Below are positions 3,958-54,800 of a stretch of DNA of 64,000 bases, in pieces; the stretch's first letter is position 1; each line of letters starts with the position of its first letter. A program made the translations under genes and the position numbers. Location of the stretch: the IMG/VR virus record IMGVR_UViG_3300017759_002599, positions 7,303 to 71,302 of that record; one strand, written 5' to 3'. The stretch comes from a virus. The notes under the pieces are model-generated. The model was not told the origin of the DNA. It did no database searches and saw nothing but the letters and a program-made list of their open reading frames with translations.

Positions 3958-3973
3958 ATTTCTCACCTTCTTT

Positions 3974-3993
3974 CTCTTTGCCAATTTATAAAG
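3974..3993 (-). promoter_or_regulatory. Early promoter repeat copy (TTTATAAAttGGCAAAGAG)
   Basis: One of 11 near-identical copies; TATA box about 27 nt upstream of the RFC ATG. Confidence 0.8.
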
Positions 3994-3997
3994 CAAA

Positions 3998-4279
3998 TCA
4001 TTTCCTTCTCTCTTTTTTTGTTTTCTTACGAAGTTCTTCATTCATGTGTTTAGCCATCTCAATAAATGAGTCAATTGATTCTGTATGAAGAACAACATAT
4101 AGTGAATTGAATTGTTCTTCCGTCAAGACATCCCATATTTTCATTTGCATAAAATTGTTGAGAGCCAAGTGTCTTGTTCTCGTATTTTTAAATTCCCTGA
4201 CATCTTCAACAGGAAGCCCAAAGACGACTGTTAGCATTTCATCAAACATTGAATAGTTGCGTAAATATAAATTCATCAT
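3998..4279 (-). CDS. Hypothetical protein
   Basis: 93-aa ORF coupled (ATGA) to the upstream gene. Confidence 0.6.
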   Translation of the reverse strand: MMNLYLRNYSMFDEMLTVVFGLPVEDVREFKNTRTRHLALNNFMQMKIWDVLTEEQFNSLYVVLHTESIDSFIEMAKHMNEELRKKTKKERRK

Positions 4280-4653
4280 TCATCCCTCACTCGGTCAAAC
4301 TCCTCCGCCCAGTCAATGAAGTCATCATAGGATGTACTGGGTACAGGATTGTTGAATGTGTATACCATTGTGTCGTAGTACCGTTGCTTAGTTAGCAGGT
4401 GAGCGTACGGCTCTATTGCGTCCAACCACTCGGTCACATCAGCGTTAGCGGTTGCAGGTAGCGGAGGTAGGCCACTCTCTTCAATCCACATCTGTACAGG
4501 CAACTCTTGGTCGCTGTCGTAGGTGATGTCGATTTTACGTTTGAGTCTGTACCCCACCCCAGTGTGTACCTTCTCGGTTGTGGTAGAGAAGCGTAGTTTC
4601 GACAGTAAAATACCAAGTCCTACGTTGGTTAGCCAGTCCTTTGTCTTACCCAT
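4276..4653 (-). CDS. Hypothetical protein
   Basis: ORF with GGTGA RBS before MGKTKDW. Confidence 0.7.
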   Translation of the reverse strand: MGKTKDWLTNVGLGILLSKLRFSTTTEKVHTGVGYRLKRKIDITYDSDQELPVQMWIEESGLPPLPATANADVTEWLDAIEPYAHLLTKQRYYDTMVYTFNNPVPSTSYDDFIDWAEEFDRVRDE

Positions 4654-5875
4654 GATTTTCACCTACCAATGTAATGTAATCGACAATTTCATCCACGTCG
4701 GACAAGCCGTATGAAGTGAAAAGTCCAGTGTATATGAAGTGCCAATTGCGTCGTGGACTCCAAGTATACTCTACTTTCACTGTTAAATTATCAGAAAGCG
4801 GTTCGGAAACCTGCCTTGCTGTGACGTTGATGTGTTGCTTACGCAATTGCTGTTCAATCTCAAACGGCAGTTCTGTCATAGCAATGATGTCAGGTACATC
4901 AACAACATCAAGCCCATCACGGAAACCGAGTGTGAACTCTATGTTGTCACCGACTCGCTTGTAATACATGAGTTGGCCTGTTAGTGATACTGTGCCACTG
5001 GTCATCAAGAAGTATTCACCATGCTCTTTGATGAGGAAACCACCCTTCGGGTAATTGTGTAAGAGTTGCAAAGACTCTTCCCACGATGTAGGAAGCGGTT
5101 CTTTGTATTTAGAAAACGGAAGTTCTATACTTTCGCTGTGAATGTAATTTGTTTGGAGTGGATTCAGCCAACACCATGTAAGCGGTACATCTGTCGGTAT
5201 GTCCATCATTAGGTCCACCATGAGTTCTTTGGCTCTATTGCGTACAGCACCTCGATGTGCCTGTATGAGTGTACTACAATCAGTGACAAACCAATACTCA
5301 CTTGATGTCTCAACAATCCCAAGTTTGTTCTTTGTATAGGGACGCAGTGGTACGAACATCTCCTCCGCCAATTTGTCCCTGCCGATACCTGTAAACACCA
5401 TCTGTATCAGCATTTCAGGATTGTAGTTGCTGATGTCCGACATGTCGAGCCTCATCTTCAACCACTTGACCATACGGTAACGCACCGAAGACCAACGGTA
5501 CTCCAATGCCCAACGCCAAAACATCTCGGCTTCGATTAAGGACATTGAACGACACAGGTCAAGCACCCAGTCCTCATCAGGTATGTTGTGTACCAACGCC
5601 ATCAGTTCATCAACGTTCAAGCCTTTGCTTTGGTCGTTGGATTCCCATGTCAAGATTTTCGATATGTGTGCATTGTCACCGACTGCATCAAGTTGTTCAA
5701 CAAAGCAACCACACTCGTTTGCAAGTTGTATCTTGACACGTCGTGCTGTCATGGGCAACCTTTCTTTGGCATCCAAGAAACGCCACACTGTAAGGGCTTC
5801 TTCCATTGACAAATCATTCGTCGTGAGATGACGTGGCATCTTTGAAACCAATGCACATAGACGCTGGAAATTCAT
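4646..5875 (-). CDS. Degenerate ATP-dependent DNA ligase homolog
   Basis: DBD-like N-terminus (LCRSMSLIEAEMFWRWAL) and OB-like C-terminus (FTLGFRDG...VKVEY...SDVDEI); no KxDG motif. Confidence 0.5.
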   Translation of the reverse strand: MNFQRLCALVSKMPRHLTTNDLSMEEALTVWRFLDAKERLPMTARRVKIQLANECGCFVEQLDAVGDNAHISKILTWESNDQSKGLNVDELMALVHNIPDEDWVLDLCRSMSLIEAEMFWRWALEYRWSSVRYRMVKWLKMRLDMSDISNYNPEMLIQMVFTGIGRDKLAEEMFVPLRPYTKNKLGIVETSSEYWFVTDCSTLIQAHRGAVRNRAKELMVDLMMDIPTDVPLTWCWLNPLQTNYIHSESIELPFSKYKEPLPTSWEESLQLLHNYPKGGFLIKEHGEYFLMTSGTVSLTGQLMYYKRVGDNIEFTLGFRDGLDVVDVPDIIAMTELPFEIEQQLRKQHINVTARQVSEPLSDNLTVKVEYTWSPRRNWHFIYTGLFTSYGLSDVDEIVDYITLVGENHG

Positions 5876-26294: not shown

Positions 26295-26476
26295 TGTCAT
26301 TGTGGTCATGTAGTCACTTTGTTCACGGCTATGTTCATGTCGATGACTACAACAGGTATAGTCAAGTTATCATACTCCTATGTATATATTATATTGAGAG
26401 TAGTACCCTATGAGTATTGACTATTCGTTATGGTCAAACGGGTGAATAGAGGTGTGAATAAAGTGAACATAGTGAC
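26295..26476. other. Non-coding element A (AT-rich core with TGAC/GTCA arrays), related to element B at 34641-34760
   Basis: Shared blocks listed under findings. Confidence 0.6.
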
Positions 26477-26775
26477 GTGCTTTGCTTTCACGTTGAAACC
26501 ATAGACTTGCATCTGTATAGGGTGGTGAATCAACACCCCGTATATGCAGGGTGGTGCGACGACACCCCAGCCGTCAACCTCGTGCTTATAGCATGGAGTC
26601 CTGCTGTCGTGCGCCTCTCCTACCAAAGAGAAAATCTCACGTACAGATACGAGAGCCGTGAAGAGTCCAACCCATATGGGTGCGAGTCAATTGATGAACA
26701 AGGTCGAGCGTGTGGCGAGGGCGTAGTGAAGACTCCAGCACCCCGCACGCTACGTGCTATGAGGAATTTTGCGAT

Positions 26776-29985: not shown

Positions 29986-31656
29986 ATGGTCGGAGCGAAG
30001 CCTGTACTTGTTCGCAAGCAACAGGCTCGTCTTAGTGACTTTTATCCAGTCACATTGCCTGAAGTACAAACAGCAACACAACAAATGCAAAACATACCTG
30101 CAACAACTCAAACCAAAGCAAGCAGTTGGCATCAGCATAACGAAGATTTAGAAAATAACGATGGAAACATCACAAATGTAAATCAAATTTATTATGAACC
30201 AAGAGAAGGATATTTTCCTGAAGTTTCTCCACTGTCGGCTGAACAGCAATTAAACATGCATCTTGACGAGTTGCGAGCAAAAACCGAAAACCCTGAAGAT
30301 ATTGTACAACAATTCATTGAAGACATGCGTAATGAAAAAAATGTTCACAATGTTCCTCGTAAATTGAGAGAACGTACAGAAAATGAACTATTGCGTAATT
30401 TACGTCCGTTACCTGTAAGCGAAGTAAACGAAAAATTTGGTCGTATACGATTTCCAAGTAAAGAGTTTGCTAATGAAAACATACCTGAAAATATGGTTGA
30501 TAGTTTGCGTCGTACTAAGCAATTCCGTGATTACTTTGGCCGTCAAACTACGTTGCCTGAACATTTTCCCTCATATCATACCGAAGATTGGCTTGACCCT
30601 GAAACCGGATTGGTGCGTGAAGGCGCAATAGCCCCTGTAACGGCTGTGCGTCGTGCAAATAGTCGTGACATTATGGGTGGTATGGCGCAAACGGGTGGTG
30701 GATTGATACCGCTTCCAAACAGTAGCAATGAAAGTTTTGAAAATCGAAATTCGGGTCGTCGCCCTATGCTTATGCAATCACAAAACCCACCCCTTGAACA
30801 CTTCCAAAGTGGGTACTTTTTGACTACACCATATGTTGCTGATTTAGACAGGTCTGTTACAGTCCACGATACAGATGCACTTATTGGGGTTCGTGGATTT
30901 GGAGCACCGAGTGGTGATGTATTCCAAGCACGTCCAGCAGGTGAGGCAAAAGAGGGCGCAACGGAAGCCGTTGTACACAGTCGTATAGCCCCTGAACGGC
31001 TTGTACCTCTTCGATACAATGATTCGTATCAAAATTTGATAAGAGGAGATGAAAATAGTAAACCAAGTTTTCTTACGCTTAATGACATAAGAAATTTCTT
31101 TCGACCAAAAACATCACAGGATTTTCGTCAAGCCATAGGTCGAGAAAAAGATGATACAATATCACGTAATCAAAAATTTGACTACATTCGTGACCATTTA
31201 CCGTTTATGCAGTTTGCTCCCCCTGAATTTAATGAAATGGTCGATAGGCATGGAATGCCGGCTGCGCTTACAGACGATGAAAAAAATCGTTTTTTAGAAG
31301 CAATGGAAGAAGAAGATAACAATTATCATAGAGATATGACAAATAAAAAACGTAAATTAGGAAATAAACTTGCCCTGATACGAAACTTGGGAGCAACTGA
31401 TTGGTGGGACAGACCAGATAAGGGAGATGTGCTTACACTACGTGACCTAACCTTACCTTCAATATGGGGTGACCCAATGGCGGCATTGGCAAACGCACCA
31501 CCACACACTAAGGATGCACTTATTGAATTGTTCAACCACAGATTTAATACCAATTACCCAACCAACAAAAAATTGAAAGAAATGGAAGAATCAATAATGC
31601 CTACCATTCCAAAAAAGAAGACACAATTTGAAGAACTAAATGAATTATTTGGATGA
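29986..31656 (+). CDS. Late protein with PIP box and possible ADP-ribosyltransferase-like module
   Basis: VLVRK-QQARLSDFY; AVRR..GGLIP..GYFLT..LIGVR..EAVVHSRIAPERLV. Confidence 0.7.
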   Translation: MVGAKPVLVRKQQARLSDFYPVTLPEVQTATQQMQNIPATTQTKASSWHQHNEDLENNDGNITNVNQIYYEPREGYFPEVSPLSAEQQLNMHLDELRAKTENPEDIVQQFIEDMRNEKNVHNVPRKLRERTENELLRNLRPLPVSEVNEKFGRIRFPSKEFANENIPENMVDSLRRTKQFRDYFGRQTTLPEHFPSYHTEDWLDPETGLVREGAIAPVTAVRRANSRDIMGGMAQTGGGLIPLPNSSNESFENRNSGRRPMLMQSQNPPLEHFQSGYFLTTPYVADLDRSVTVHDTDALIGVRGFGAPSGDVFQARPAGEAKEGATEAVVHSRIAPERLVPLRYNDSYQNLIRGDENSKPSFLTLNDIRNFFRPKTSQDFRQAIGREKDDTISRNQKFDYIRDHLPFMQFAPPEFNEMVDRHGMPAALTDDEKNRFLEAMEEEDNNYHRDMTNKKRKLGNKLALIRNLGATDWWDRPDKGDVLTLRDLTLPSIWGDPMAALANAPPHTKDALIELFNHRFNTNYPTNKKLKEMEESIMPTIPKKKTQFEELNELFG

Positions 31657-33983
31657 GTGATACAATGTTTACAAATTGGAATCGTAAAGCAAACAAAGAA
31701 ACTCGTTTGAATCCGTTATCTATAGATGACATTGATGCTCTTACCATAGCCACATTGCATGGTATGGGTACAACGCCTGAACAATTTCGAGATAATGTAA
31801 AGCAAGACGTGACTGAAGATGCGATGAAGCAAGGCGAAGCGATTATGCGTAGAAATCCAAAAGTGCAAATGCCTGATTCGCATTTTAAATTGCAAGGTGC
31901 TCAAGAGCAACAAATGATGGACGATTTAGAACTTCAAATTCCTGAATTTAAATTTAATGAACAACAAGCCAAAACAGCAGGTGGATTGCGAGAAATGGAA
32001 CGTAATCAAGCAGTAGAACGAGCACGTAACGCATACAAAAAAACATACAAAGACCACGTTATGCAAGCCTTTGACAAGCACAAAGCCTTCATGCAAAGTC
32101 TTGGTAACCAACCAATGAGTGCTCAAGAGTTTATGCAACATCCAAAAGTGCCTTCCTTTACTGATTATTACAAGCAAGTACAAGAAGGCACAGCACCCGG
32201 TTCGGAATACGCCGACGAACATCCGTTTGCATTGACGCACCCTGATGAGTTTACGGAGCAACTAAACCAATCAAGAGAGAACAATCCCTATGGACAATTT
32301 TTTGCTGATTACGATGAAATGCGTCACATGACACCATTCATCCCCGTCATCACAGGCGAGCCAATGGACTTGGCAATGGACACCTTGCTTAAGTTCCAAA
32401 GTGCCGCACAGCGTCGTATTTACAATCAAATACCATTTGCCGAAGAAGTGGGAAGTATAGATGATGTTGTTGCAATGCGAAATATACCAGTGCGTCGTTT
32501 GGAAAGTGGTGGTATGCCGTCATTTAACATGCCAGTGCCACTTCGTGGTAATCGACCCGGTGACCCATTACAATTTGAACGTGACATTCATGCAAAAGGC
32601 GGTGCAACTATACCCGGTTTTACACCCGATTATGAAATACCTGATGACCCTCGTAAAGAAATTCAAGGGACATTTGTATATCCATTAGATGTTTCATCAT
32701 TAGCACCTGAACGATTCACATCAAGTGGTAATCCTGATTTTTTATCAACAGGTTATCCTGATATGAATAGAGGTATAGGTGATACTGTTACATTGGGCAT
32801 ACTTGAAAAACCTGAATGGCGTGCAGGTCAAGCACATGGAAGAAGCCAACCTGAAGGGTATCAACCATTTGGTTTTGACAAAGATGCATTTGTGCGTTTA
32901 GATGGTGGCTTAGGTGTAAGCGCAGTTGGTCCTCGTGAAGAGTGGAGCGCATTAGCCCGACGACTTTCACCTGCATTTGCAGAACCAAAAATTGGTGATG
33001 AAGCACTCCATCTGTATGACTACCCCGCACTTTACAGAACATTATCAAAACTTCCTGTTACCACAACTGCAAGTAATCGTAACCCTTTGACTGGATATAA
33101 ACCTACAAACATAGATTTTCTTCTTGACCGCATGGGCGGTGCAAGGGTGGTGACTGGTGAACCAATGGACTTGGCAATAGATGCGTTGCTTAAGCGTGAC
33201 AAGATATATGACCCCAATGCTGAAAACAAAGGTCAAGAAGGAGTTGACTGGCATCCCGGTGAAGAAGGAGTTGATTGGGATTCAGCAGTTTCATCATCAC
33301 TTCATCCGAGTCATGATTTAACACAAAGGCATCCTTTTGACTATGATATGCACGAGTACGACCATCATGCTCAAAAATTACTCAACCTTATGCGAAACCG
33401 TGATGTTGCACACCTTCAAAATAATGAAAATCCAATGACCGAAGATGAGCAATTTGATTTAATGGATGCACAACAAAAATTACAGGCTTCTATTCCTAAA
33501 AATACACATTTTCCAAGTATTCAAAATGCCGTTGGATATGATAAAGACGGAAACAAGATAAGCACATTTGGTGACGGAAGACCAAAGTTTAACGAAGGTT
33601 CTCCACGCTATCAAGAACTAATTGGTGATAGACCAACAGTTCCTATTCACACAGAAGGTTCTTTTTACGGAGTTCCATTCAATGAGAAAACAGGCTTTAC
33701 CCGTAGCGAACCAATGGCATTAGCAATAGACGCATTGCTCAAAGACCTGTCACCTGAAGCCAAGCGTCACAAGTTGGAGTACGACAAGAAGTACGAGTCC
33801 AGTCCTGAACGAGTCAAGTATCGAGAGGAGTTGAACCGTGAGCGACGGCGACGTGGTATCTACGGCAGTGGCGACCACATGGACGTGTCGCATACAGAAG
33901 GTGGCAAACTAACACTGGAATCTGAACACGACAATCGAGCAAGGCATTTTAAGGACAAAGGGACACTACGACCCAGTGATTGA
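31653..33983 (+). CDS. Modular polyprotein with three EPMxLAxDxLLK linkers and a C-terminal HNH-like module
   Basis: Linkers at 32352, 33153, 33702; YREELNRERR..GDHMDVSH..ESEHDNRAR. Confidence 0.85.
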   Translation: MSDTMFTNWNRKANKETRLNPLSIDDIDALTIATLHGMGTTPEQFRDNVKQDVTEDAMKQGEAIMRRNPKVQMPDSHFKLQGAQEQQMMDDLELQIPEFKFNEQQAKTAGGLREMERNQAVERARNAYKKTYKDHVMQAFDKHKAFMQSLGNQPMSAQEFMQHPKVPSFTDYYKQVQEGTAPGSEYADEHPFALTHPDEFTEQLNQSRENNPYGQFFADYDEMRHMTPFIPVITGEPMDLAMDTLLKFQSAAQRRIYNQIPFAEEVGSIDDVVAMRNIPVRRLESGGMPSFNMPVPLRGNRPGDPLQFERDIHAKGGATIPGFTPDYEIPDDPRKEIQGTFVYPLDVSSLAPERFTSSGNPDFLSTGYPDMNRGIGDTVTLGILEKPEWRAGQAHGRSQPEGYQPFGFDKDAFVRLDGGLGVSAVGPREEWSALARRLSPAFAEPKIGDEALHLYDYPALYRTLSKLPVTTTASNRNPLTGYKPTNIDFLLDRMGGARVVTGEPMDLAIDALLKRDKIYDPNAENKGQEGVDWHPGEEGVDWDSAVSSSLHPSHDLTQRHPFDYDMHEYDHHAQKLLNLMRNRDVAHLQNNENPMTEDEQFDLMDAQQKLQASIPKNTHFPSIQNAVGYDKDGNKISTFGDGRPKFNEGSPRYQELIGDRPTVPIHTEGSFYGVPFNEKTGFTRSEPMALAIDALLKDLSPEAKRHKLEYDKKYESSPERVKYREELNRERRRRGIYGSGDHMDVSHTEGGKLTLESEHDNRARHFKDKGTLRPSD

Positions 33984-34482
33984 TATGACACCAATGCAAG
34001 AGGCTTGGTTGTTGTTGAAGATGCCTATTGTTGATAATTCTATACAACAAACAAGTGATAATCGTTTTGAAGCACAATTTCGTGACCCAAAAACAAACAA
34101 AATTTATCCTATGATTGCAGAAGAAAACCCAAAATACGGAGTAATGAATGTAGGTATTTATCCATCACAGCCGACAATTTTAGGCACTCCTACGGCTCTT
34201 GATGCAATGGATTTAACAGATGATGACATAAATGATGATGTAATAGATTCACTCGGTCTTGGATTATCCAATGCTGAATTAAGTGTAGCCGACCGTTATG
34301 GCGATGGGCATGATTCAGACAACTATTGGGAATCAAATATGACGTGGACGCATCCTCTACACAGAAGACGTGGATATGCTACAGCGTTGTATGATTTAAT
34401 AAATCAAATCAGTCCTCATCAAATAAGACCAAGTGATAATCAATCTGATGAAGGAAAATTGTTTTGGTCTAAAAAGAGGTGA
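33976..34482 (+). CDS. Tagged GNAT-family acetyltransferase
   Basis: PMQEAWLLLK-MPIVD; THPLHRRRGYATALY...QSDEGKLFW. Confidence 0.8.
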   Translation: MIDMTPMQEAWLLLKMPIVDNSIQQTSDNRFEAQFRDPKTNKIYPMIAEENPKYGVMNVGIYPSQPTILGTPTALDAMDLTDDDINDDVIDSLGLGLSNAELSVADRYGDGHDSDNYWESNMTWTHPLHRRRGYATALYDLINQISPHQIRPSDNQSDEGKLFWSKKR

Positions 34483-34487
34483 AAACA

Positions 34488-34643
34488 ATGACACGATGTA
34501 AGATGCTTGACGAATGGTTTGACGACGAATCAAAGCGTATTGATTCTATAGAAGCGAAGACTGGGATTGAATTTGTAACTGGAAAGCCAAAGTCAAAAAA
34601 GTCACTTTGGTCACGTTGGTCAAAGTTATGGTCATTCAAATGA
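34488..34643 (+). CDS. Small protein with amphipathic Trp/Lys C-terminus (not in ORF track)
   Basis: GAGGTGA RBS; MTRCKMLDEWFD...SLWSRWSKLWSFK. Confidence 0.55.
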   Translation: MTRCKMLDEWFDDESKRIDSIEAKTGIEFVTGKPKSKKSLWSRWSKLWSFK

Positions 34644-34760
34644 GTACTACTCTTAATTATTATATAATTGTAGTACCTATGAATAAATGACTATTGTATT
34701 GGTCAATTTAATGACTATACCTGTGAATAAAGTGAATAAAGCGGTAAAGTGACCATAGCG
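34641..34760. other. Non-coding element B, related to element A
   Basis: gtactac-(AT core)-gtagtac; blocks shared with 26295-26476. Confidence 0.6.
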
Positions 34761-34802
34761 AAACGTTTATGTTGCCCATTAATTTGACCAACAGTGAGAA
34801 CG

Positions 34803-35330
34803 ATGCAGGGCAGTACTGAAAATTCGGACGCTGAAATACGACTGATGGGACTTATTTTGTCGCAATCCGCACTGGTTGGATTAGCAATTGGTATCTTTGA
34901 CAAGGACATTTGGCTTAACCACGACGACCCAATGGTAAACGGTTTTACCTACGCAATGGCTGCATTTTTTGTACAAGGTATTGCATATTATTTCTTCAAG
35001 ATGTTCTTTGAACAGAACATGCAAGAGCGTGTACGTATACAACAATCCGAGCGACAACGCCAAACTCGATACCGTTCATTGCAAACCAACTTCGATAACC
35101 GTCGTGCCGACATGGAGTTGCGTATGCAAGAAGCGCAACTTGAACGTGAACTGCGATGGATGGAAGAAAACCCCGGTAAGATGCCTCCATCATGGGGCGT
35201 ACAAGGTGGCTCCCCTTCATTGGTAAGCCAGTACGATGAAAATCAACTCAATGTATATCCTCCAAAACACGAGGCTATTGTAGATAAACCAATTAACTTG
35301 GGTATCAAAGAGGAAGAAAAGAAAGAGTGA
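34803..35330 (+). CDS. Membrane protein (2 TM helices and coiled coil)
   Basis: LMGLILSQSALVGLAIGIF and FTYAMAAFFVQGIAYYFF, followed by a charged helix. Confidence 0.8.
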   Translation: MQGSTENSDAEIRLMGLILSQSALVGLAIGIFDKDIWLNHDDPMVNGFTYAMAAFFVQGIAYYFFKMFFEQNMQERVRIQQSERQRQTRYRSLQTNFDNRRADMELRMQEAQLERELRWMEENPGKMPPSWGVQGGSPSLVSQYDENQLNVYPPKHEAIVDKPINLGIKEEEKKE

Positions 35331-35341
35331 GGTGAACCCGC

Positions 35342-35596
35342 ATGGGTCGCATATTCAAAACGCCAAGTGATGACAGCACCGAAGCCACACTTCGTGCCAT
35401 GCATACGCAAAACACACTTGACAATTATTACGAAAAAGGTTGGGGATGGCTTCGTACCTTACTGTTTACTTTATTTGCTATTTTAGCAACAAGCCTGTGG
35501 GAAAAACAAACAGATGCATCGGTATGGGACAACACCGTAAACTGGTTTGTAGGTAAAGTTGAAGACTTTGGTAACTGGGTTTTGGGGCTGTTCTAA
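35342..35596 (+). CDS. Small membrane protein
   Basis: GWLRTLLFTLFAILATSLW TM helix; amphipathic C-terminus; GAGGTGA RBS. Confidence 0.8.
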   Translation: MGRIFKTPSDDSTEATLRAMHTQNTLDNYYEKGWGWLRTLLFTLFAILATSLWEKQTDASVWDNTVNWFVGKVEDFGNWVLGLF

Positions 35597-36312
35597 TGGT
35601 AGACCCCGCAGGTTCAGCATTGGTCGGTGTCATGGTATGGGGTCAAGCCCTATACAACTCATGGCGACCACGACGTGTTGGAATCTATGGTGCTGGTATG
35701 GTTGGAAAGACAACGCTTGACCGTTTTATGACAACGCCCGGCGAAATGGAAGACATATCTGAAGAAGAACGAACTATGCATCGTAAAATGCTTGGTAAGT
35801 ACAAAATGCCAAAACCAACACGTAAGCGTGTAAGTTGGAAAGGACACAAGCGGGTTGTGTACTCTTCCGATGTAGGTGGACAGGAGCGTTTTTGGAATCT
35901 TTGGATTGATGATATGGTTAATCGACAAGTTGAAGCGGTAGTTTACATGTTTGATGACCGAGCATTCAAAGGTGGTAATGACGCATTGCAACAAATTGCA
36001 GGTTTCAAATTCCTTGTTGATGCCATTCTTAATCGACAATACCGTTATCGTAACTGGAAAGCCCGACGTAAAGGTAAGAAGTACATGCCTAAACTGATTA
36101 TGTTGGTTGCAAACAAGGCTGACCGCTTTTTCGATGACACTGCCGCAATGTTATGGCAACAAGACCGTATAGGTGAACACAAGATATTCGACCCATTTCG
36201 AGATGATTTAATACGACTGCAACGTGGAGGTATACCTACACGACGGTCGTTTATGGCTACAAGAATAGGGTGGAACGTTGAAAACACAATGGTCGATTTA
36301 TTGACAGCATAG
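35596..36312 (+). CDS. Ras-superfamily (Arf/Rab-like) small GTPase
   Basis: G1 GAGMVGKT, G2 T (ERT), G3 DVGGQERFWNLW, AVVYMFD, G4 VANKAD, G5-like FMATRIGWNV; hydrophobic N-terminal helix. Confidence 0.92.
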   Translation: MVDPAGSALVGVMVWGQALYNSWRPRRVGIYGAGMVGKTTLDRFMTTPGEMEDISEEERTMHRKMLGKYKMPKPTRKRVSWKGHKRVVYSSDVGGQERFWNLWIDDMVNRQVEAVVYMFDDRAFKGGNDALQQIAGFKFLVDAILNRQYRYRNWKARRKGKKYMPKLIMLVANKADRFFDDTAAMLWQQDRIGEHKIFDPFRDDLIRLQRGGIPTRRSFMATRIGWNVENTMVDLLTA

Positions 36313-36320
36313 GTGAGAGC

Positions 36321-36485
36321 ATGACAAAAACAAACATTACGTCTGTAGGAAACAAAACACAAAGTCTACGTACGGTTATTCCGTTGTGGATTGTAAAAGT
36401 CTTGAAACTGTCAAAGGGTGACAAGATTGAATGGGATGTTGATGTACACAACAGTACGATTGAAATTAAGAAGGTGAAAGAATGA
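36321..36485 (+). CDS. AbrB/MazE-like DNA-binding protein (not in ORF track)
   Basis: MTKTNITSVGNKTQSLRTVIPLWIVKVLKLSKGDKIEWDV...IEIKKV; GGTGA RBS. Confidence 0.8.
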   Translation: MTKTNITSVGNKTQSLRTVIPLWIVKVLKLSKGDKIEWDVDVHNSTIEIKKVKE

Positions 36486-37423
36486 GAATGGTGTTCGATA
36501 ACAACACAGGAATGCAACGATTGGGTAGTTCAAATGAAGCACACTTGTATGCACTTAGCCAACAGGGTAATGAATCGTTGAATTATGCTACACTTATGGA
36601 GCAAGCCACTGCACAATCGGCTATGCAACAAATTGCATCGGAGCAAAACCTTGAAGTTCCAAAAGTCAATTTTTATCCATCACGTCATCCTGACCCACAC
36701 AAAGCACGACGCAAAGATATTCGTCAAGCACGTAAGTTACTTTCACCAGCAAAACGTGCATGGTTCAATCCTATGCGATGGTTGTTTGGACAAAAGTACC
36801 GATACGACCGTCAAGCCAGTATGTGTGTTGTTGATGGATGCGACTGTGCGAAACTGATTCAACACGACAATTTGTACGCAAAAATTACTGATGAAGAAAC
36901 AGGATATTCATTATGGCAATTGTATTGGCAAAATCCTGTTACAAAAGAAGCCGAAGCGTTTGTTGCAAAAGAAAAAGTCATGAATGGACGTAAAATGAAA
37001 GGTACATACTGTCCTGAACATTTGCATTTGTATCATCTTCTCAACAGATGGGAAGCCGAAGAAGACAAGTTACGTGAAGCAAATCCACGTCGTCTACGTG
37101 ACCGTGTAAAGAAAGGCGTGTCGATGGTGACTGTACCTGTTGCTACCATTAAGAAAAAAGACCCAACGCCTGAATTTTTGCAAAAGTACGAAGAGTTTTT
37201 TGCTATGCTTGAAAAAGACAGCAAAAGCACAAAAGGTATTTCAATTCTTAATTATGAAAATCCCGTTACTGGAATGAATGATGTAACAATGATTGTGTTT
37301 GACTTGCGAATTTTTCAACAAGAGTTGGCTATGATGAACCAACCAACCCCTGCTTTTCAAACAATTCTGAATCAACAGGTGCAACAAAACACTCTTGAAG
37401 AAGTACAACTTGGGGGAGAGTGA
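36482..37423 (+). CDS. Hypothetical protein with C/H metal site
   Basis: CVVDGC...YCPEH; amphipathic RAWFNPMRWLF. Confidence 0.75.
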   Translation: MRMVFDNNTGMQRLGSSNEAHLYALSQQGNESLNYATLMEQATAQSAMQQIASEQNLEVPKVNFYPSRHPDPHKARRKDIRQARKLLSPAKRAWFNPMRWLFGQKYRYDRQASMCVVDGCDCAKLIQHDNLYAKITDEETGYSLWQLYWQNPVTKEAEAFVAKEKVMNGRKMKGTYCPEHLHLYHLLNRWEAEEDKLREANPRRLRDRVKKGVSMVTVPVATIKKKDPTPEFLQKYEEFFAMLEKDSKSTKGISILNYENPVTGMNDVTMIVFDLRIFQQELAMMNQPTPAFQTILNQQVQQNTLEEVQLGGE

Positions 37424-38046
37424 GTCTGATGTTAAATCTTAATCAAAACACCAATGCCAACGGTGCGCTTAATCTTGGTGTAAACAGTGCTCAACCCGCT
37501 ATGCAGACACAAAATCCATTTCTAAATCAGCAAGCACAAATGGGAGCACAGGGTGCGTTTATGACAGGTATGTTAGGCGACAATGCACAATACATGAATC
37601 AACCTGTTATGCCTCCATCGGAAATTGAAATTCAAATTATGTTGTTGCGTGGTATTGTACCTGTAGACCGATTTGTAGCAAGTGAATCTATGGCAACAAT
37701 GGTACAAATGTTCAACGACCTTATGACGTTTAGTGTGCTTGAAGTATTCAAAAATGCAACCTTTATTCCTGATGATGATGGTAATCTCAAAATGGACATT
37801 ACATCATTGCCTTCTCATTTGCAAACTATGAGTTCAGATAACATTGCATCCAAGTTTACGGCTCTCCAAAGTACGGCCAATCAAAACATACAGACTGCTG
37901 AACAACAGCAAATGCAGTTGAATCAAATGGCACAACAATCTATGATGGGTGGAGCATTAAATGCGGCATTGCAAAATGAAGGCATGATGCAAAAAGTAGG
38001 TGGCGGTGTAGGTACATTCGCTCGTACACTCTTTACAGGACGATGA
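37420..38046 (+). CDS. Hypothetical Q/M/N-rich protein
   Basis: Coupled ORF; amphipathic C-terminus VGTFARTLF. Confidence 0.75.
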   Translation: MSLMLNLNQNTNANGALNLGVNSAQPAMQTQNPFLNQQAQMGAQGAFMTGMLGDNAQYMNQPVMPPSEIEIQIMLLRGIVPVDRFVASESMATMVQMFNDLMTFSVLEVFKNATFIPDDDGNLKMDITSLPSHLQTMSSDNIASKFTALQSTANQNIQTAEQQQMQLNQMAQQSMMGGALNAALQNEGMMQKVGGGVGTFARTLFTGR

Positions 38047-38050
38047 TACT

Positions 38051-38293
38051 ATGCAAGATAAGAATTACTTACCATACGGATTTTCAACCTCTTCGCTTAA
38101 TGTCATGAACCCACCACGCAGTGTTATTATTGACATGATTATGGTGCAGTTCATTTCAATCATTTTAACAATGATTGCTATTATGCTGTTTAAGGGTAAT
38201 GAGTTGTCATCTACAACGTTGTCATACTTCCTTGTTGCTCTTTTCGGTAGTGTCTTGATGGTCACTGGAATCTATTCGAGAATCACTCGATAG
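38051..38293 (+). CDS. Small 2-TM membrane protein (holin-like size)
   Basis: Two hydrophobic helices in 80 aa. Confidence 0.75.
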   Translation: MQDKNYLPYGFSTSSLNVMNPPRSVIIDMIMVQFISIILTMIAIMLFKGNELSSTTLSYFLVALFGSVLMVTGIYSRITR

Positions 38294-38530
38294 TGTCCAC
38301 TTACGCAAAGGGCATGTAGAATTTTTCAATTTTAATTTTGTCTTAAGATAGCAACCACAGGCTGTGCATCGAGTACCAAAGTGTGGGCAAGGGCGACATA
38401 TGCGAAGTCGATGCAGTATTGTATCATCATCAGCGTAGTCTTTTCTTGATATGTCCTTCATGGCTTGCTTGATGCTTCTAAACGAATCGGTTGAGATTGG
38501 AACTCCAGCGATTCGTTTGTTCTTCCACAT
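38222..38530 (-). CDS. Cys-rich protein (DUF6171-like)
   Basis: RLRICRPC...CTACGCYL..K......CPLRKW. Confidence 0.7.
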   Translation of the reverse strand: MWKNKRIAGVPISTDSFRSIKQAMKDISRKDYADDDTILHRLRICRPCPHFGTRCTACGCYLKTKLKLKNSTCPLRKWTLSSDSRIDSSDHQDTTEKSNKEV

Positions 38531-38590
38531 AGTCCTCTCCAAAGATACAATCACCATAATTGTTTTCAAAGGGTATGCCTTAAGACAGTC

Positions 38591-39271
38591 ATGGCGGATG
38601 AGCGTGTTGTTAAACGTTCATGCGCTTTTTGCATGGATGAAGACCGTGAAGAGTTGGAAGAACAACTGCTTCAAGGCTACATTTCACCGAAGCAATTGGA
38701 TAAGGATAAAGGGTGGAGGTCGAACACATCCGACCGTCATTATCGCAACCACATGGGTGAATATCACATAGCCGCAAATGCATCTTGTGCTGTATGTACA
38801 TCACCCCATCGAGCCGACTACGAAAGTATTTATTTTGCTGACGGCTCACAAAGTGAAGTTATTGCACAAGAATTGGGAATCAGTGAGAACTTAGTTTACC
38901 AACACATGAAACATCATTTCCAACCACTGGTGCAAAAAACTGCGGCTCTTGAAATAGCGTCGTTTGCTGTCGGTAATGAATTGAACCTACTACGTAGCAA
39001 TGCTGAACATTTGAATTTAAAACTAACAGAACTGTTGAACGAAGGCACTGTTCACGAAGATGGATTTGTTCGTGATGCGGTTTCTTTGCATAAGGAAGTA
39101 AGAGAAACTGTCAAAGACTTGATGCGTTTCCAAGACCAATGGGGTCCACAAGGTGAAACACAGCAAGTCAATCAAACATTCAATATTTTGCAGGTTGAAT
39201 TAAACAAGGAAAGTCCTGAAACGTGGGCAAGAATCAAAGCACAATTGCAAGAAAACATGGGGGTTGAATAA
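38591..39271 (+). CDS. Putative terminase small subunit (duplicated Zn/HTH)
   Basis: Two CxxC...HTH...HxxxH units and a helical oligomerisation-like region; upstream of TerL in the same arm. Confidence 0.55.
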   Translation: MADERVVKRSCAFCMDEDREELEEQLLQGYISPKQLDKDKGWRSNTSDRHYRNHMGEYHIAANASCAVCTSPHRADYESIYFADGSQSEVIAQELGISENLVYQHMKHHFQPLVQKTAALEIASFAVGNELNLLRSNAEHLNLKLTELLNEGTVHEDGFVRDAVSLHKEVRETVKDLMRFQDQWGPQGETQQVNQTFNILQVELNKESPETWARIKAQLQENMGVE

Positions 39272-41430
39272 TGCCAATGATGGGAAGAGGTTCTGATACC
39301 CGAATGTATGCACCACGTAGTGAATCGGAAACGATGTATTCTTCGGCCAATGAAGACGGTGGAAAATACAGTGGTAACACCGCCGAAGAAAAAGAAAAGA
39401 AAGAAGAAAACCGCAAGTTGCGAGCCGAAGAACGCAAGCAACGACGTGATAAAATAAAACACATTAAGATTCGTTCAACTCAAGGATTGAAGGGTGAAGA
39501 GTCACCTGTTCCTGAAGATGATAGCAACAAGCAAGATGACGAGCGTGAGATTAGCCTACAAGGTGGTCCTGCTGGAAGTCGTGGTAATCTTCTCGACCTT
39601 GCAACAGGTGCAAAGTCTGGTACAGGTTCAGCAATGACTGGACCGTTGCCAATTGCAATGAGTGAGCCAATGGATGGTGCTTGGAGTAGTTTGTTGAAAT
39701 ATAATGAGAAATATAATGATGACCCTTCTTTACCTCATAATCAACCACCATATCCTGTTTCAATGAACACAGTCAAAAGACCTTGCGACAAATGTGGTAA
39801 TTTAGCAAATATCACTTATTATGGGAATAATCCTGATTACTTTGAATCTTACTGTCATTTTTGCAGAACGGGAAAAACGCCTCCAACACAAGAAGATTTT
39901 GACAGATTAAAAGAAAATATACAGGCAAGTGAGCCGATGAAGGGTGCTTGGAGTTCGCTACTCAAGGCTGTGCTTGGTGACCAAAGAGGCGCTGTGTTTA
40001 ACCCTCGATTTAGAACAAGTGAATCACCAAGTCAAAAAAACATAGCGGAAGGTCAAGCACATGGAATGGTTGGCACACGACGTGCGGCTGGAGAACCAGC
40101 AGAACGTCGTAGAAAACAATTAGCAATGGGTCAAAAAAGATTGGACGCAGGTATTGATAAAAGATTGATGTACAGTAACCCTGACTATTACGACTACTTA
40201 GTGGCTCGTACTCAACTCCCTCCTTCACAACAGCAAGAATTACCTTACCCTGCTGTGGAAAGAAGAAATATTGAACGATTAGGAGGAGGAAATTTCGGTG
40301 GTGGGCGACGTAATTCAATTGCACAACGTGCAGGGTTTGATACAAGTCCCGCACAACTGCATAATTTGCAACGTCTTTCTACAACAATGATACCTCAAAA
40401 GTTTATGATGCGAGATGACGCAGTTGATTATTCAGGTTTAACCCCATCACCAATTCCAAACATGGTTTATGATTCAAATATGAACCTTATTCCTGACCCT
40501 CGTCTTGAACAAAAATCCAGTGACTTTGTATTGGTGTCTGATATTCTTAAGCGTGATACACCGAATAAAATTCAATCACGTCGTCGCCGTGAAAAGCGAC
40601 AACAGTTCCGTCCATCTACAGGTCAATTCAAGCGACCACCCGGTGGTATGAACCCTGTCGGTGCAACCATGCGTCGATTCCGAGCACGTATGCGTGGTAT
40701 CAAGGGGGGTAAGAAAACAGGATTGATGAAGCCACACTTGTCTGTTGAGATGAGCCACCGTGGTATCGCTACTAAGCAACCCATGTCAAAAGACCCACAG
40801 AAGTATCGACAATACATGGGTCAATCCGAGGCTCGTAAAATACTTGGTAATGTACGTTCAACATTTTCACCGCACGCTCGATACGGTGAACGTTCCGTTA
40901 CAGCAGGTCCAACAGGTGCAGGTCGTCTTGGTGGATTGATGCCCGGACAATCAGGACAAATGCGACGACCTTCGCTCAAACAAATCGGAGTGCGTCGTCC
41001 ACGACTACGACGACCCCGTAATCCTGTCATGGCTCCCGCACCACCAATGGGTGTACCAAGTCCACCTATGCAAGCACCATCAAGTATCTCATCGCTACCC
41101 CAAGCATCGACTCCAATGATGATGAGTGAGGAGCGTGCAGAAAGTGATTTACTTAAAGGGCGTAATAAAAATCTTCGTTATCACAAAATCAACCTTCTTC
41201 GTCGTTTGATAGCAGCACAAGAACGTGCTGGAAAACTCGGTAAGTCAATGCAAGGCACACGTTCAGCAATGGAAAATGGACACGTACCAAGTCACCCTGC
41301 GGGTGTACACCAGCATGAAGATGAAGATGAGAAAAATGATGGACCTACGCAGAATCTTGAAACAAATTCAAGTCGTTTAGGTCTTGACCCTGCTGGATAT
41401 TTGACTTCAAAGCGGGGGCATATGGGATGA
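39271..41430 (+). CDS. Modular low-complexity polyprotein with two SEPMxGAWSSLLK linkers
   Basis: Linkers at 39661 and 39928 bracket a CDKC..CHFC module; Arg-rich module after SDILK. Confidence 0.85.
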   Translation: MPMMGRGSDTRMYAPRSESETMYSSANEDGGKYSGNTAEEKEKKEENRKLRAEERKQRRDKIKHIKIRSTQGLKGEESPVPEDDSNKQDDEREISLQGGPAGSRGNLLDLATGAKSGTGSAMTGPLPIAMSEPMDGAWSSLLKYNEKYNDDPSLPHNQPPYPVSMNTVKRPCDKCGNLANITYYGNNPDYFESYCHFCRTGKTPPTQEDFDRLKENIQASEPMKGAWSSLLKAVLGDQRGAVFNPRFRTSESPSQKNIAEGQAHGMVGTRRAAGEPAERRRKQLAMGQKRLDAGIDKRLMYSNPDYYDYLVARTQLPPSQQQELPYPAVERRNIERLGGGNFGGGRRNSIAQRAGFDTSPAQLHNLQRLSTTMIPQKFMMRDDAVDYSGLTPSPIPNMVYDSNMNLIPDPRLEQKSSDFVLVSDILKRDTPNKIQSRRRREKRQQFRPSTGQFKRPPGGMNPVGATMRRFRARMRGIKGGKKTGLMKPHLSVEMSHRGIATKQPMSKDPQKYRQYMGQSEARKILGNVRSTFSPHARYGERSVTAGPTGAGRLGGLMPGQSGQMRRPSLKQIGVRRPRLRRPRNPVMAPAPPMGVPSPPMQAPSSISSLPQASTPMMMSEERAESDLLKGRNKNLRYHKINLLRRLIAAQERAGKLGKSMQGTRSAMENGHVPSHPAGVHQHEDEDEKNDGPTQNLETNSSRLGLDPAGYLTSKRGHMG

Positions 41431-51219: not shown

Positions 51220-51821
51220 TGAAGCCCCGTCCAAGTGAAGCACCTTTACTTACAAAAGCAAGAGAAATTGAGCATCGTCTAAGTCAATTGGAAATTATCA
51301 AAGGGAAGTGCGATTGCCCCAAAGGAAAATGCGACTGTAAAGACTGCCCAAGTTGTGGTTCTAAGATGAACAAAGCGGGTGGTTGTATGAAGATGGATTG
51401 CGGTGGCAAAATGGCAAAAGCCGAACCCGGTTTTAAGGCTGAAAAAATCACAGACGTAAACCCTGCTTTCATGGCTGAATCGGGTGGACAAACCAAGAGT
51501 GGTTATTTTACCACCAACGGTAGAACCATCGAAACAGAAGACGCACCAAAGAAAAAGAAGGGTAAGGATGCAACTAACATGGAGCAACTTTCAACTCGTA
51601 TGAATCCACATGCAGGTGGCGGTGTGGATAGGGAAGATGCAATGGGGGAGTCAAAGAAACTCAAAAAGGCATCAAGTAAGGCTCTTATGCGTGAAGCAAG
51701 CGAGCAAAGCCCAGTGCCAACAATTTGTCGTACATGCGGCGCAACACAACAAAGCGGTTGCAAAATGCCTGAATTGATGGGTGCTGACCTCCATGCATGT
51801 CCAGCATTCCAGCCGCTATGA
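51219..51821 (+). CDS. Cys/Lys-rich head-associated protein
   Basis: CDCPKGKCDCKDCPSC; several hydrophobic-K-A/G sites. Confidence 0.75.
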   Translation: MKPRPSEAPLLTKAREIEHRLSQLEIIKGKCDCPKGKCDCKDCPSCGSKMNKAGGCMKMDCGGKMAKAEPGFKAEKITDVNPAFMAESGGQTKSGYFTTNGRTIETEDAPKKKKGKDATNMEQLSTRMNPHAGGGVDREDAMGESKKLKKASSKALMREASEQSPVPTICRTCGATQQSGCKMPELMGADLHACPAFQPL

Positions 51822-51834
51822 TGGCGGTGAAAGT

Positions 51835-54800
51835 ATGTCGTATGACCAACTTGACATTGCAAGTGCCGATTTGCTAAAGTCGTTGGACGACAAACTTGAC
51901 CTTGAGCGTAATGCGGCTGAATACATTATTGCATGGCAATCCATGCAAAAAGCACCAAGTGAAATTATCTATACATCGCTGTTTTCAATCGCTGATGCGA
52001 TTATCAAAGAAAAAAAAGAAGAGGGAGAAGATAAGTTTGAGTATGAATACGATACTGGAACAGACACAGGTGCGGGGTTGCTTCTCAATACACAAGACAC
52101 ACAGGATGATTTGACAAACCACATTTGGGTCGATGGTTTACAACGTGGTAAGAAAAACGCTGACCACCACTCCGTGTGGCCTGTGTACCGCCCAACAGCA
52201 GGTCATCCATACAAAGAGTATCACTTTCCGTTCCACCCTGCCAATCACCCGCTTCTTCGTATGCATTCTGTAACAGGTATGCCGCACTATGTTGAAATGC
52301 TCCGAGCGCATACACTTGGTGGCTACATGGATGAAGAAAAAGAAATGGAAAAGGATTACTTAAGCGAACTTTCTAAAGAAAAACACCCGTTAATGTTTGG
52401 ATTTCAGCCCGAAGGAACAGATAAAACATTCAAACTACTTGGAAGTATTTTGCAAAACGGCTCAATGCTTTCACATCAAAAAGACCTCTACCAACGTGAT
52501 TTTCAACGATGGAAAAAACAAAACACAGAACGAGAAGATGAATATCTTGCGATGGGTATGACTCCAAAGGATGTTTTTCAAAAACTGCGTGAAGACCATT
52601 TTGAAGACCGAGCAAGGCAATGGGTAAGTGAAGATACAGTACTTGATGATAATTACAAAATTCATCCAACTGCATTAGGACATCACGGTTACATGCTTGG
52701 ACTTGAGTGGTTGTCACCTGAAGAACGTACTGCGGTTATGAAAGGTATGCGTGAAGGTGTAGACGACAATCACTTGATTGAATTACCAAACGGTCAAAAA
52801 GTTCCATCGGCTCGTTTTACGCATAATGCGATTATGCGAAAAACACCTGAAATGAATTGGGCTGTACGAAGTCCGAGAATGTTAGGACGCAATGCTTCAC
52901 TTCGATTAGAAGACAACGATACCGATTATGAAGCAAGCGAATCGGGTCGTTTCTTACAGTCGGGTGTGGCAAAAGGGGCGCATCTTCCATACGGTTCAAA
53001 CGATGAGTCCATTGCTGACATTATCCTTAACGAAATCAATGAATTGTACGACGGAATGCGAGAAGATGGTGAAGATAATTACAAAACTCCAATGAAATTT
53101 TTACCACGACTCAATCTTCACAAAACGGGTGAACTTCCTGAATTGGAATGGGAACAGTTGAAAGATGCTGAACGAGCACAGTTTGGTAAAAAAACTATGG
53201 AAGTAGACCATGCGAGATTACCTATTGAAGACGTTCTGTATATGGCGGGTTTTCATCCTAAAACAAGAGAACTACTATCCATGCATCCTGTTTATGGAAA
53301 AATGGACGGACCGCTTGTACCGCTTGACTGGATTGAAAATATCGAAGAAGATGCTTCTTCGTCTATGAATTTGCATCAACAAGAAAAAAATATTCGTAAG
53401 CACTTATCGTTTTTGAAAGCCGTTCACGGTCCAGCACCGAGTGAAGACAAGCCTTCCTATTGGCGCACAAGTGAAGACGGAAGGCACACTTACGGTCTTG
53501 GTTCTTTTTGGTCAAAACCGTTTCAAGGAATAGGTGGTGCAGGTATGACATTACCTACGTACAACGAAATTATTCATGCTACTACTTCAGACGATGACAG
53601 TGTATCGTTGCTTGGTGAAATGCATGATTTTGGTAAAAGTGGTGAAAAAACCGTTATCGTACCAAATCAAAACAATGTTTCTTTGGGTGCTCACTTTATG
53701 CCTGAACATTCTCAACAACACGGTCACTACGATAAAAATGTTGAAAAATATATTTACCATAATGCGCCTAAACTCATTCAAAATGTTCTTTCACCATCAA
53801 ATGTTTCACGACCATCACCAAGTGCTTCATCAAAATCAGGGTACAAAGAAGGCAAAACGACGAAGAACAATTTTACTGAACACAAATCATCGCTTTCAGC
53901 CCCGTATGAATATGCAATACGGCATATGACTGATGGTGAACGAAAAGATTTGTTTGAAAATCAACCTCACCTCAAAGCGTTCAACAGTGTACTTACAAGA
54001 AATCCATTCATACATCACGGCTCATACCGCAATTATGCGCCATATGGAAGCGATAAGCATATTGTCAATAATGCACAAGATATTCACAAACTCATTATGC
54101 AATTAGGTCGATTTAATCACTTAAACAACCCTACAGAAAAATCAGTTATATCGTTCAACGATTTCATACGAGATGCTCAACCAGTAAGTGGTGGTGAAAC
54201 CACCGAAGATATGCTTGCGTATTTAGGGTGGGGTGTTCCATCACCATCGTTTGGAAAAGTCAAAGACTACTTGCAAAGTAGCGCACAACGTGAAGGGTTG
54301 CGTTTCTTAACTGAAATATCAAAAACTATTCAATCAACAAATCCGAAGGCTATCATGGAATACTTGGAAAAAGAAGATTTTGAAGATTTGTATCAACGAT
54401 TGGGTTTTGCAAAAAATACAGATGCTCCTGTTAAACAACTTGTTGATAACTTCTTAGATGATGTGCTGTTTAACCTATCAAACCGTAGTCGCTCGTTTAA
54501 GCACAAGAAACCAACACTTCTTGATGCTGTTACAAGTGGTTTGAGTTTTGGTGGAGCACTCCCTGCATTTGAGCAAGAAGAAAAATTGCAAGCAGAAGTT
54601 GATGATTTGAATCAGCGTATGGTTGAGGCAGATGATATTGACAAGCCACTTATCCAACAACAACTTTCTCAAAAGGTTGCTGAATTAACCTCGCTTCAAC
54701 AACAAGCCATTGAAAGCACTCAAGGTAAAATGACATCGCATTGGAAAATCGACCAACGACGTGAAGAAGACCTCAAGAAAGCACATCGTATGTTGGTAGC

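Follow-up and report, generated by a model that had tools for sequence, protein, structure and literature searches.

Arf-type membrane switches are best known from eukaryotes and have recently also been described in Asgard archaea and haloarchaea. According to the criteria set out in PMC11914678, Arf proteins carry Leu-Asp at positions 2-3 of the G1 motif as well as a Gly at the third position of the DxxG motif. The ArvA-ArvB-ArvC operon of Haloferax volcanii, which contains a small Arf-like GTPase, deforms membranes, and ArvA is a cellular protein which is mostly vertically inherited (PMC10927574). For archaeal head-tailed viruses, the players in egress are termed completely uncharacterized in a review (PMC10791045).

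Here we describe a cassette of seven tightly coupled open reading frames (ORFs) which occupies positions 34794-38293, plus strand, of a 64,000-nucleotide stretch of viral DNA. This stretch, referred to as the window, corresponds to bases 7303-71302 of the linear IMG/VR record IMGVR_UViG_3300017759_002599 (71.3 kb, rated 66% complete). The third ORF encodes a GTPase which constitutes a separate and very divergent Arf-like family within the Ras superfamily, and the gene order of the cassette is conserved across three virus clades. Arf-type membrane switches are hence used by prokaryotic viruses too. We tentatively regard the block as a virus-encoded, membrane-associated GTP-switch module, the most likely task of which would be to govern virus release. 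A preliminary description of this DNA, made from its letters, had presented the block as a tightly coupled run of seven genes, and all seven are indeed present in one orientation. Their junctions comprise, in order, an 11-nt gap, a 1-nt overlap, an 8-nt gap, two 4-nt overlaps and a 4-nt gap. The members are as follows:

g1, 34794-35330, plus strand: membrane protein of 178 aa; GTG start, with an in-frame ATG at 34803
g2, 35342-35596, plus strand: single-pass membrane protein of 84 aa; stop codon and GTPase start share 1 nt
GTPase, 35596-36312, plus strand: 238 aa, Arf-like, with a hydrophobic N-terminal helix
g4, 36321-36485, plus strand: 54 aa, weakly AbrB/SpoVT/MazE-like
g5, 36482-37423, plus strand: Cys/His orphan of 313 aa with Gln-rich N- and C-terminal parts
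g6, 37420-38046, plus strand: Met/Gln-rich orphan of 208 aa
g7, 38051-38293, plus strand: two-pass membrane protein of 80 aa with a short basic C-terminus

The GTPase harbours the G1 motif GAGMVGKT (residues 32-39), the G3 motif DVGGQERFWNLW (residues 92-103, including DVGGQ) and the G4 motif NKAD (residues 173-176), just as the preliminary description had read them. G1 GxxxxGK[ST], G3 DxxG and G4 [NT]KxD, the signatures of the Ras superfamily (TRAFAC), are thus all present. An alignment of 89 unique family sequences, taken from the window and 98 loci, reveals G32, G37, K38, T40, T60, H62, D92, G95, W103, D120, R122, N173, K174 and D176 to be invariant (89/89), and T39 is kept in 88 of the 89. 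As the nucleotide-binding residues are invariant, selection on nucleotide binding is strict. Among the candidates for the G2 Thr, T60 never changes, while T75 is variable (T in 71 and S in 15 sequences). The position of the catalytic Gln, residue 96, is occupied by Gln in 50, Glu in 23, Asp in 13 and His in three sequences, a variability which would suit a switch that is slow or assisted by a partner.

The alignment-based AF2 model of the GTPase (pLDDT 89.0, pTM 0.85) displays a small G-domain fold in which an N-terminal helix (residues 4-23) precedes strand 1 and strands beta2 and beta3 form a hairpin (residues 75-81 and 84-90). In Arf proteins, the N-terminal helix is freed by a GTP-dependent toggle of the interswitch. 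Insertions are located after helix 1 (residues 47-74) and at about residues 127-160 and 181-210. A Foldseek search of the PDB with this model returned at least 500 matches at E<=1e-3; all 45 listed are Ras-superfamily GTPases or complexes thereof, the best among them being Rab1 (3.8e-9). The closest solved structures are Arf proteins, below which a RagA-like protein (16.0), Rab5 (15.6) and the SRP receptor subunit SR-beta (15.2) are ranked; the sequence similarity to SR-beta is at noise level. A profile built from 14 family members likewise finds its best matches in the PDB within the Arf family (Arf1, Arl8 and the Asgard proteins GerdArfR1 and HodArfR1, PDB 8OUM and 8OUK), headed by 8oun_A (1.1e-7) and followed by Arl8A/Arl8B (about 5e-5 to 8e-4). 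The single GTPase sequence, searched against the PDB by phmmer, yields no match. None of the 14 members exceeds any family cut-off of Pfam; Roc is reported for 8/14 and Arf for 7/14, always below threshold, and the best of these Arf (PF00025) values is E = 0.0048. The window GTPase itself has no Pfam Arf match, nor does a search of its own record with the PF00025 profile give any match at E<=0.01.

The comparison with the Arf criteria gives a divided picture. A Gly at the third DxxG position (G94) is present in 78/89 sequences, the remaining 11 having Ala. W103 is located eleven residues after the G3 Asp, which we take to be a feature of the Arf switch II motif, and the N-terminal helix ahead of strand 1 is shared with Arf as well. 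In contrast, Leu-Asp is found at the respective G1 positions in 0/89 sequences, position 33 being Ala in 49, Pro in 18, Thr in 17 and other residues elsewhere, and position 34 Ser in 51, Gly in 15, Pro in 11 and other residues elsewhere. Further differences from Arf are the sub-cut-off Pfam matches, the variable catalytic Gln, a length of 238 aa including three insertions compared to about 180 aa, and the fact that the protein is encoded by a prokaryotic tailed virus. The N-terminal helix, whose hydrophobic nature had been noticed beforehand, also deviates: with a hydrophobicity H of 0.64-0.75 and a hydrophobic moment of 0.20-0.33 in the window GTPase it lies outside the HeliQuest window of amphipathic helices (H 0.201-0.629, moment 0.236-0.636). 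The medians over 86 sequences are 0.69 and 0.17, and the moment on the Eisenberg scale is about 0.18. As judged from these calculated values the helix is uniformly hydrophobic, not amphipathic. The GTPase is consequently Arf-like in fold and switch II, yet lacks several defining Arf features. Longer, fused forms of it were not found among the relatives, which is weak evidence.

The gene order of the cassette was followed through two sets of loci. The close set comprises 80 viral loci whose GTPases are 67-99% identical to that of the window. The distant set comprises 17 loci with a GTPase identity of 37-42%. They fall into two clades; the family members used to fetch them, P0127 and P0126, share 42% and 39% identity, respectively, with the GTPase of the window. 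Among the close loci, g1 is found by tblastn in the same order in 77, g2 in 79, g4 in 77, and g5, g6, g7 as well as the downstream gene g9 in 80 each; the few misses include loci which begin too near the GTPase. Over all 98 loci, phmmer detects g5 in 98, g6 in 94, g9, the gene that trails the cassette, in 93, g7 in 90, g1 in 85, g2 in 80 and g4 in 78. The GTPase gene is followed by g5 in 17/17 distant loci, directly downstream and often with a 4-nt overlap. Relatives of g1 and g7 are detected by phmmer in nine and 11 of these, respectively. The 13 P0126-type loci contain g6 in 13, g7 in 11 and g9 in 12 cases, together with ORFs encoding transmembrane (TM) segments in the g1 and g2 positions; in two of them (L086 and L097) the TM ORFs at the g2 position comprise 74-79 aa. 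All four P0127-type loci keep a g1 relative and, after g5, a Met/Gln-rich ORF. Among the proteins of the neighbourhood the GTPase shows the highest median identity within the close loci (73%, compared to 41-64% for the others). The synteny across related viruses which the preliminary description had asked for is thus found, and as the order recurs in 98 viral loci the arrangement of the block is beyond chance.

Three members of the cassette are membrane proteins. Hydropathy analysis places a TM segment of g1 at residues 17-35; a long charged helix comes next (about residues 78-125), and the tail of the protein is hydrophilic. The preliminary description had assigned two TM segments and a coiled coil to this protein; one TM segment is clear from the scan, a second hydrophobic stretch is recognised by eye, and two TM segments occur in 16 of 76 unique orthologs, at least one being present in 74. 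No significant Pfam or PHROG family is found for g1. In agreement with the earlier assignment, g2 contains one TM segment (about residues 34-52; one TM in 66/70 unique orthologs), preceded by a strongly conserved soluble N-terminal segment (about residues 13-35), and g7 contains two (residues 29-47 and 56-74; two TM in 80/81 unique orthologs) and gives no Pfam or PHROG match. In size and topology g7 appears holin-like. Measured against the usual characteristics of holins, both g7 and g2 fit with respect to size and TM pattern; there is, however, neither an endolysin neighbour nor a match to a holin family. Amphipathic C-terminal helices, which had been claimed for several members, are borne out to some extent for g2 and g6, whose C-terminal hydrophobic moments are moderate (0.53 and 0.49), the other members having lower values. 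The earlier statement that the window encodes no endolysin holds for the 30 window ORFs scanned against Pfam, which are part of its ORFs.

The soluble partners g4, g5 and g6 are less easily classified. Although g4 had been described as AbrB-like, its match to the Pfam family MazE_antitoxin (E 4.2e-4, 20.6 bits) stays below the cut-off of 24.7; phrog_13486 matches at 7.7e-4. The protein is probably a small AbrB/SpoVT/MazE-type DNA-binding protein, as suggested by these weak similarities. It is limited to the clade of the window, being present in 77/80 close loci and undetected in 17/17 distant ones.

Across 37 aligned g5 sequences from three clades, neither C115 nor C177 ever varies, and the conservation of H180, H182 and H185 reaches at least 90%. 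The proposal that g5 binds metal is in line with these conserved residues, which probably form a Zn site; the binding itself is deduced from the Cys/His pattern. No Pfam, PHROG or NCBIfam family is found for g5, nor does a Pfam scan of 24 g5 members give any, and among its 673 relatives there is none with a Pfam domain. A g5 profile finds no match among PDB sequences at E<=5, tblastn against 50,697 phage records gives only noise (E>=0.3), and the Atlas matches (0.83-0.84) are confined to unnamed clusters. The AF2 model (pLDDT 77.8, pTM 0.52), searched as a whole, has no convincing fold match, from which we do not claim a new fold; the roadblock, longin or coat fold which had been envisaged for a partner of the GTPase was not found for g5. 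A prediction of the GTPase in complex with g5 scored 0.24 compared to a mark of 0.32 and, made with no controls, weighs neither way on binding.

The Gln- and Met-rich character ascribed to g6 is confirmed: Met amounts to 10.1% and Gln to 12.0%, compared to 3.5% and 4.6% in the 21 large window ORFs used for comparison, and this composition is kept in all three clades (Met 8-14%, Gln 12-16%). As seen from the alignment, Met/Gln/Gly-rich flanks enclose a small conserved helical core with an invariant PP, a nearly invariant Ser67 and a conserved SLPxxLQT region. The true start of g6 is probably the ATG at 37429; the Atlas version of the protein begins at residue 4. There is no usable Atlas match for g6 and no consistent Pfam family across 24 members. 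Both orphans, g5 with its 673 relatives and g6, represent new protein families, among which a novel type of GTPase regulator or of helix-binding chaperone may be found.

The cassette lies within the plus-strand arm of the genome, on the same strand as the large terminase (TerL), portal, prohead protease and major head protein genes, and upstream of TerL. The left arm, on the minus strand, encodes a SNF2 helicase, an RFC-like AAA ATPase, DUF932 and a PTP-like phosphatase according to the Pfam scan. The G+C content of the window is 40-51%. The portal protein shares 28-30% identity with its counterparts in the Druskaviridae haloviruses HVTV-1 and HCTV-5, and the relatives of the GTPase originate from Tara and other marine metagenomes. 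A Cpn60/TCP1 chaperonin is encoded in 5/5 near-complete cassette-bearing relatives (97-116 kb, covering three GTPase clades). None was found in the record itself, a likely consequence of the lost end of this incomplete record. Magroviruses are characterised by halovirus-like structural genes, chaperonins and, in group A, SNF2, as stated in PMC5434244. Druskaviridae-related morphogenesis genes, replisome genes of its own, marine origin and a chaperonin in its relatives place the virus among the Magrovirales; from its gene content, it is a marine magrovirus-type tailed virus. Its hosts are presumably Marine Group II (Poseidoniales) archaea, as family resemblance suggests; the hosts of magrovirus-type viruses are uncultured. 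Because portal, gene content of the arms, marine relatives and chaperonin match magrovirus traits, the haloarchaeal frame in which the preliminary description had placed the locus, with Haloferax and ArvA as points of reference, has to be abandoned; the closest cultured haloviruses show no such gene either.

The cassette bears a likeness to the ArvA operon (PMC10927574), since both combine an Arf-like GTPase bearing an N-terminal helix with conserved partners, one of them zinc-type. Neither ArvB (DUF2073) nor ArvC (DUF2072), however, appears in Pfam scans of the cassette proteins (E<=1), of 24 g5 or of 24 g6 sequences, and ArvA (HVO_3014) is likened to the viral GTPase by description, not by sequence. 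In contrast to the cellular ArvA, the family of the viral GTPase looks virus-restricted on the basis of database searches. A phmmer search of 1.84 billion cluster representatives yields 79 matches at E<=1e-3, of which many are fragments, so that the large cellular GTPase families must lie past this threshold. Among one genome per species from 185,579 species a single relative, 73% identical, is found on an 8.8-kb contig (L099) whose metagenome-assembled genome (MAG) is labelled Maricaulis; this contig is probably viral and was mis-binned into a bacterial MAG. No match at E<=0.01 is obtained by tblastn of the GTPase against phage records, those of cultured haloviruses included. A GTPase profile search of HVTV-1 gives nothing at E<=1, an empty answer which here shows little; the late arm of this virus opens directly with gene 108, HNH and TerL, and has no block the size of the cassette. 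The family member P0129 has no relative among viral contigs. The searchable literature holds no description of the cassette, no paper joining magrovirus and GTPase and none joining Marine Group II, virus, Arf-like and GTPase. The word "GTPase" is absent from the main text of PMC5434244, PMC11706807, PMC10160649, PMC8651126 and PMC5332604; the supplements of the magrovirus papers may list the gene by an automatic name such as "GTPase SAR1 family".

Our preferred, if tentative, interpretation assigns to the block the control of virus release by a GTP switch at the membrane. The GTPase would be held at the inner, cytoplasmic side of the host membrane via its N-terminal helix and would cycle between GTP and GDP with the help of g5. 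The nucleotide switch would set when, late in infection, the small membrane proteins act, and the likeliest task would be the timing or execution of host-membrane disruption for virus release. We judge release to be the likeliest because the hosts, to our knowledge, possess no murein wall and need no wall-degrading enzyme, so that membrane breakage could suffice, because no other release candidate is present among the ORFs scanned, and because the field offers no candidate for archaeal tailed viruses. The lysis genes of lambda are located at the head of its late arm, upstream of the terminase genes, and the position of the cassette recalls theirs. To holin cassettes such as those of lambda (S) and phage 21 (pinholin) the likeness extends to small proteins with one or two TM segments (g7, g2) and a short basic C-terminus; the cassette differs from them by the lack of any match to an endolysin or holin family, by its GTPase and two large orphans and by its far deeper conservation. 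For the release of archaeal head-tailed viruses it is a concrete, clonable candidate.

Several points weigh against a role in release. No member is similar to a known holin, lysin, coat protein, GTPase-activating protein (GAP) or guanine nucleotide exchange factor (GEF) as judged by Pfam and PHROG and, for g5, by PDB and fold searches. Small membrane proteins have many uses in phage genomes, and the block is deeply conserved, in contrast to typical lysis cassettes, which evolve fast and are freely swapped. Moreover, Glu, Asp or His takes the place of the catalytic Gln in 39/89 sequences, GTP hydrolysis being a prediction, and the host assignment of the record goes by family resemblance. A far-reaching version of the release interpretation would see in the cassette the release machine that archaeal tailed viruses have so far been missing, based on a principle unseen in bacteriophages. 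The GTPase would serve as a lysis clock, g6 and g5 would keep the hydrophobic helices of g7, g2 and the GTPase inactive, and a nucleotide change would free these helices to break or remodel the membrane. This version we consider rather improbable.

Alternatively, the cassette might handle membrane proteins, with g6, and perhaps the Gln-rich ends of g5, acting as flexible "helical-hand" holdases for hydrophobic helices, namely the anchor of the GTPase and the TM segments of g1, g2 and g7, the delivery or release of which would be governed by the SR-beta/Arf-like GTPase. The Met/Gln-rich composition of g6, conserved in three clades as in helix-binding chaperones, favours this idea, and methionine- and glutamine-rich helical hands have been described for Sgt2-C and the SRP54 M domain (PMC8010706). 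On the other hand, no SR-alpha/SRX-like partner is recognised in the cassette. The idea is new here and draws solely on composition and the published description of helical hands; we consider it unlikely. About equally unlikely appears a role in superinfection exclusion or takeover of the host surface, by which membrane or envelope would be altered against further viruses or host secretion redirected. Three members in the membrane plus the anchor of the GTPase would suit such a role, which had been raised in the preliminary description as well. The block is, however, situated in the structural-gene arm and conserved across three clades, whereas exclusion genes are usually early, variable and lineage-specific.

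The same location, inside the morphogenesis arm, upstream of the large terminase and between large proteins sharing an EPMxxAxxxLLK-type motif, would agree with a function as accessory to virion assembly, the GTPase and its partners being chaperones or a platform for head, tail or packaged cargo, perhaps at the membrane. Yet none of the members is similar to a known assembly factor, one would not expect three integral membrane proteins in the assembly of a tailed-virus capsid or tail, and related cultured haloviruses assemble without the cassette; we regard this explanation as quite improbable. Finally, the GTPase might be a recently captured host housekeeping protein beside unrelated small genes, as viruses often take host genes and as the JGI name "GTPase SAR1 family protein" on 8/120 listed relatives could suggest. 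With no cellular family at Pfam cut-offs, just 79 matches in 1.84 billion representatives, one small contig in 185,579 species genomes and a gene order fixed down to 37% GTPase identity, a lone capture of this kind, which the preliminary description had set against its own proposal, is scarcely credible. As far as sequence comparison can tell, the GTPase gene has long been owned by viruses and is no recent acquisition from a host.

The cassette is preceded by a noncoding element:

upstream spacer, 34644..34793, plus strand: AT-rich intergenic region of 150 nt with a TATA-like TTATATAA stretch

Pairwise alignment shows this spacer to be about 78% identical over about 100 nt to a second noncoding element at 26380-26480. 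Both elements (26380-26480 and 34650-34760) begin with a TATA-like run, and the 15-mer TGTGAATAAAGTGAA occurs in the window solely at 26453 and 34722. Allowing up to three changes, it is found upstream of g1 in 13/83 loci. As the likeness is kept in only these 13, our reading of the spacer does not go beyond that of a probable local promoter or regulatory repeat. A scan for bacterial-type promoters and terminators gave counts at chance level and, for an archaeal virus, carries no meaning. Five contigs of 183-406 nt are at least 99% identical to the region (33900-34056, 37720-38125, 38184-38366 (X1), 38207-38392 (X2) and 39007-39230). They stem from two of the three runs of a single study, all of which bear a metatranscriptomic label along with the flag "probably DNA", and are silent on expression and transcript ends; the third run contains no contig matching the region.

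Among the neighbouring genes, the ORF at 34479-34643 (54 aa) overlaps by 4 nt with the stop of a GNAT-like ORF of 168 aa and ends just before the spacer. The EPMxxAxxxLLK-type helix motif recurs in the flanking proteins encoded at 31653-33983, 33976-34482 and 39271-41430: the 776-aa ORF contains three copies and the 719-aa ORF two, and the 168-aa ORF has a related one at its N-terminus. The motif is absent from all seven cassette proteins. A minus-strand ORF of 115 aa (38222-38569) lies within the plus arm, its 3' end overlapping g7 by 72 nt; it matches DUF6171 with 27.2 bits (cut-off 27) and phrog_13558 at 1.4e-13 and is present in 34/80 close loci. The subsequent g9 (38591-39271, 226 aa) contains an N-terminal Cys cluster and shows weak helix-turn-helix matches (GerE 0.011, Sigma70_r4_2 0.047). 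A function as small terminase or as regulator is conceivable; no similarity between g9 and HVTV1_108 is detectable. Further downstream, an ORF of 1933 aa (51781-57582) is located between the portal region and the prohead protease. In one P0127-type locus (L082) a thermosome-like ORF of 511 aa (3250-4785) lies just upstream of the g1 relative, so that the cassette stands beside a chaperonin in a genomic context unlike that of the window. The P0126-type loci L086 (8621-8875) and L097 (8483-8764) contain between g7 and g9 a plus-strand ORF of 84-93 aa with an acidic DxDGDGDFD-type run resembling a calcium-binding loop.

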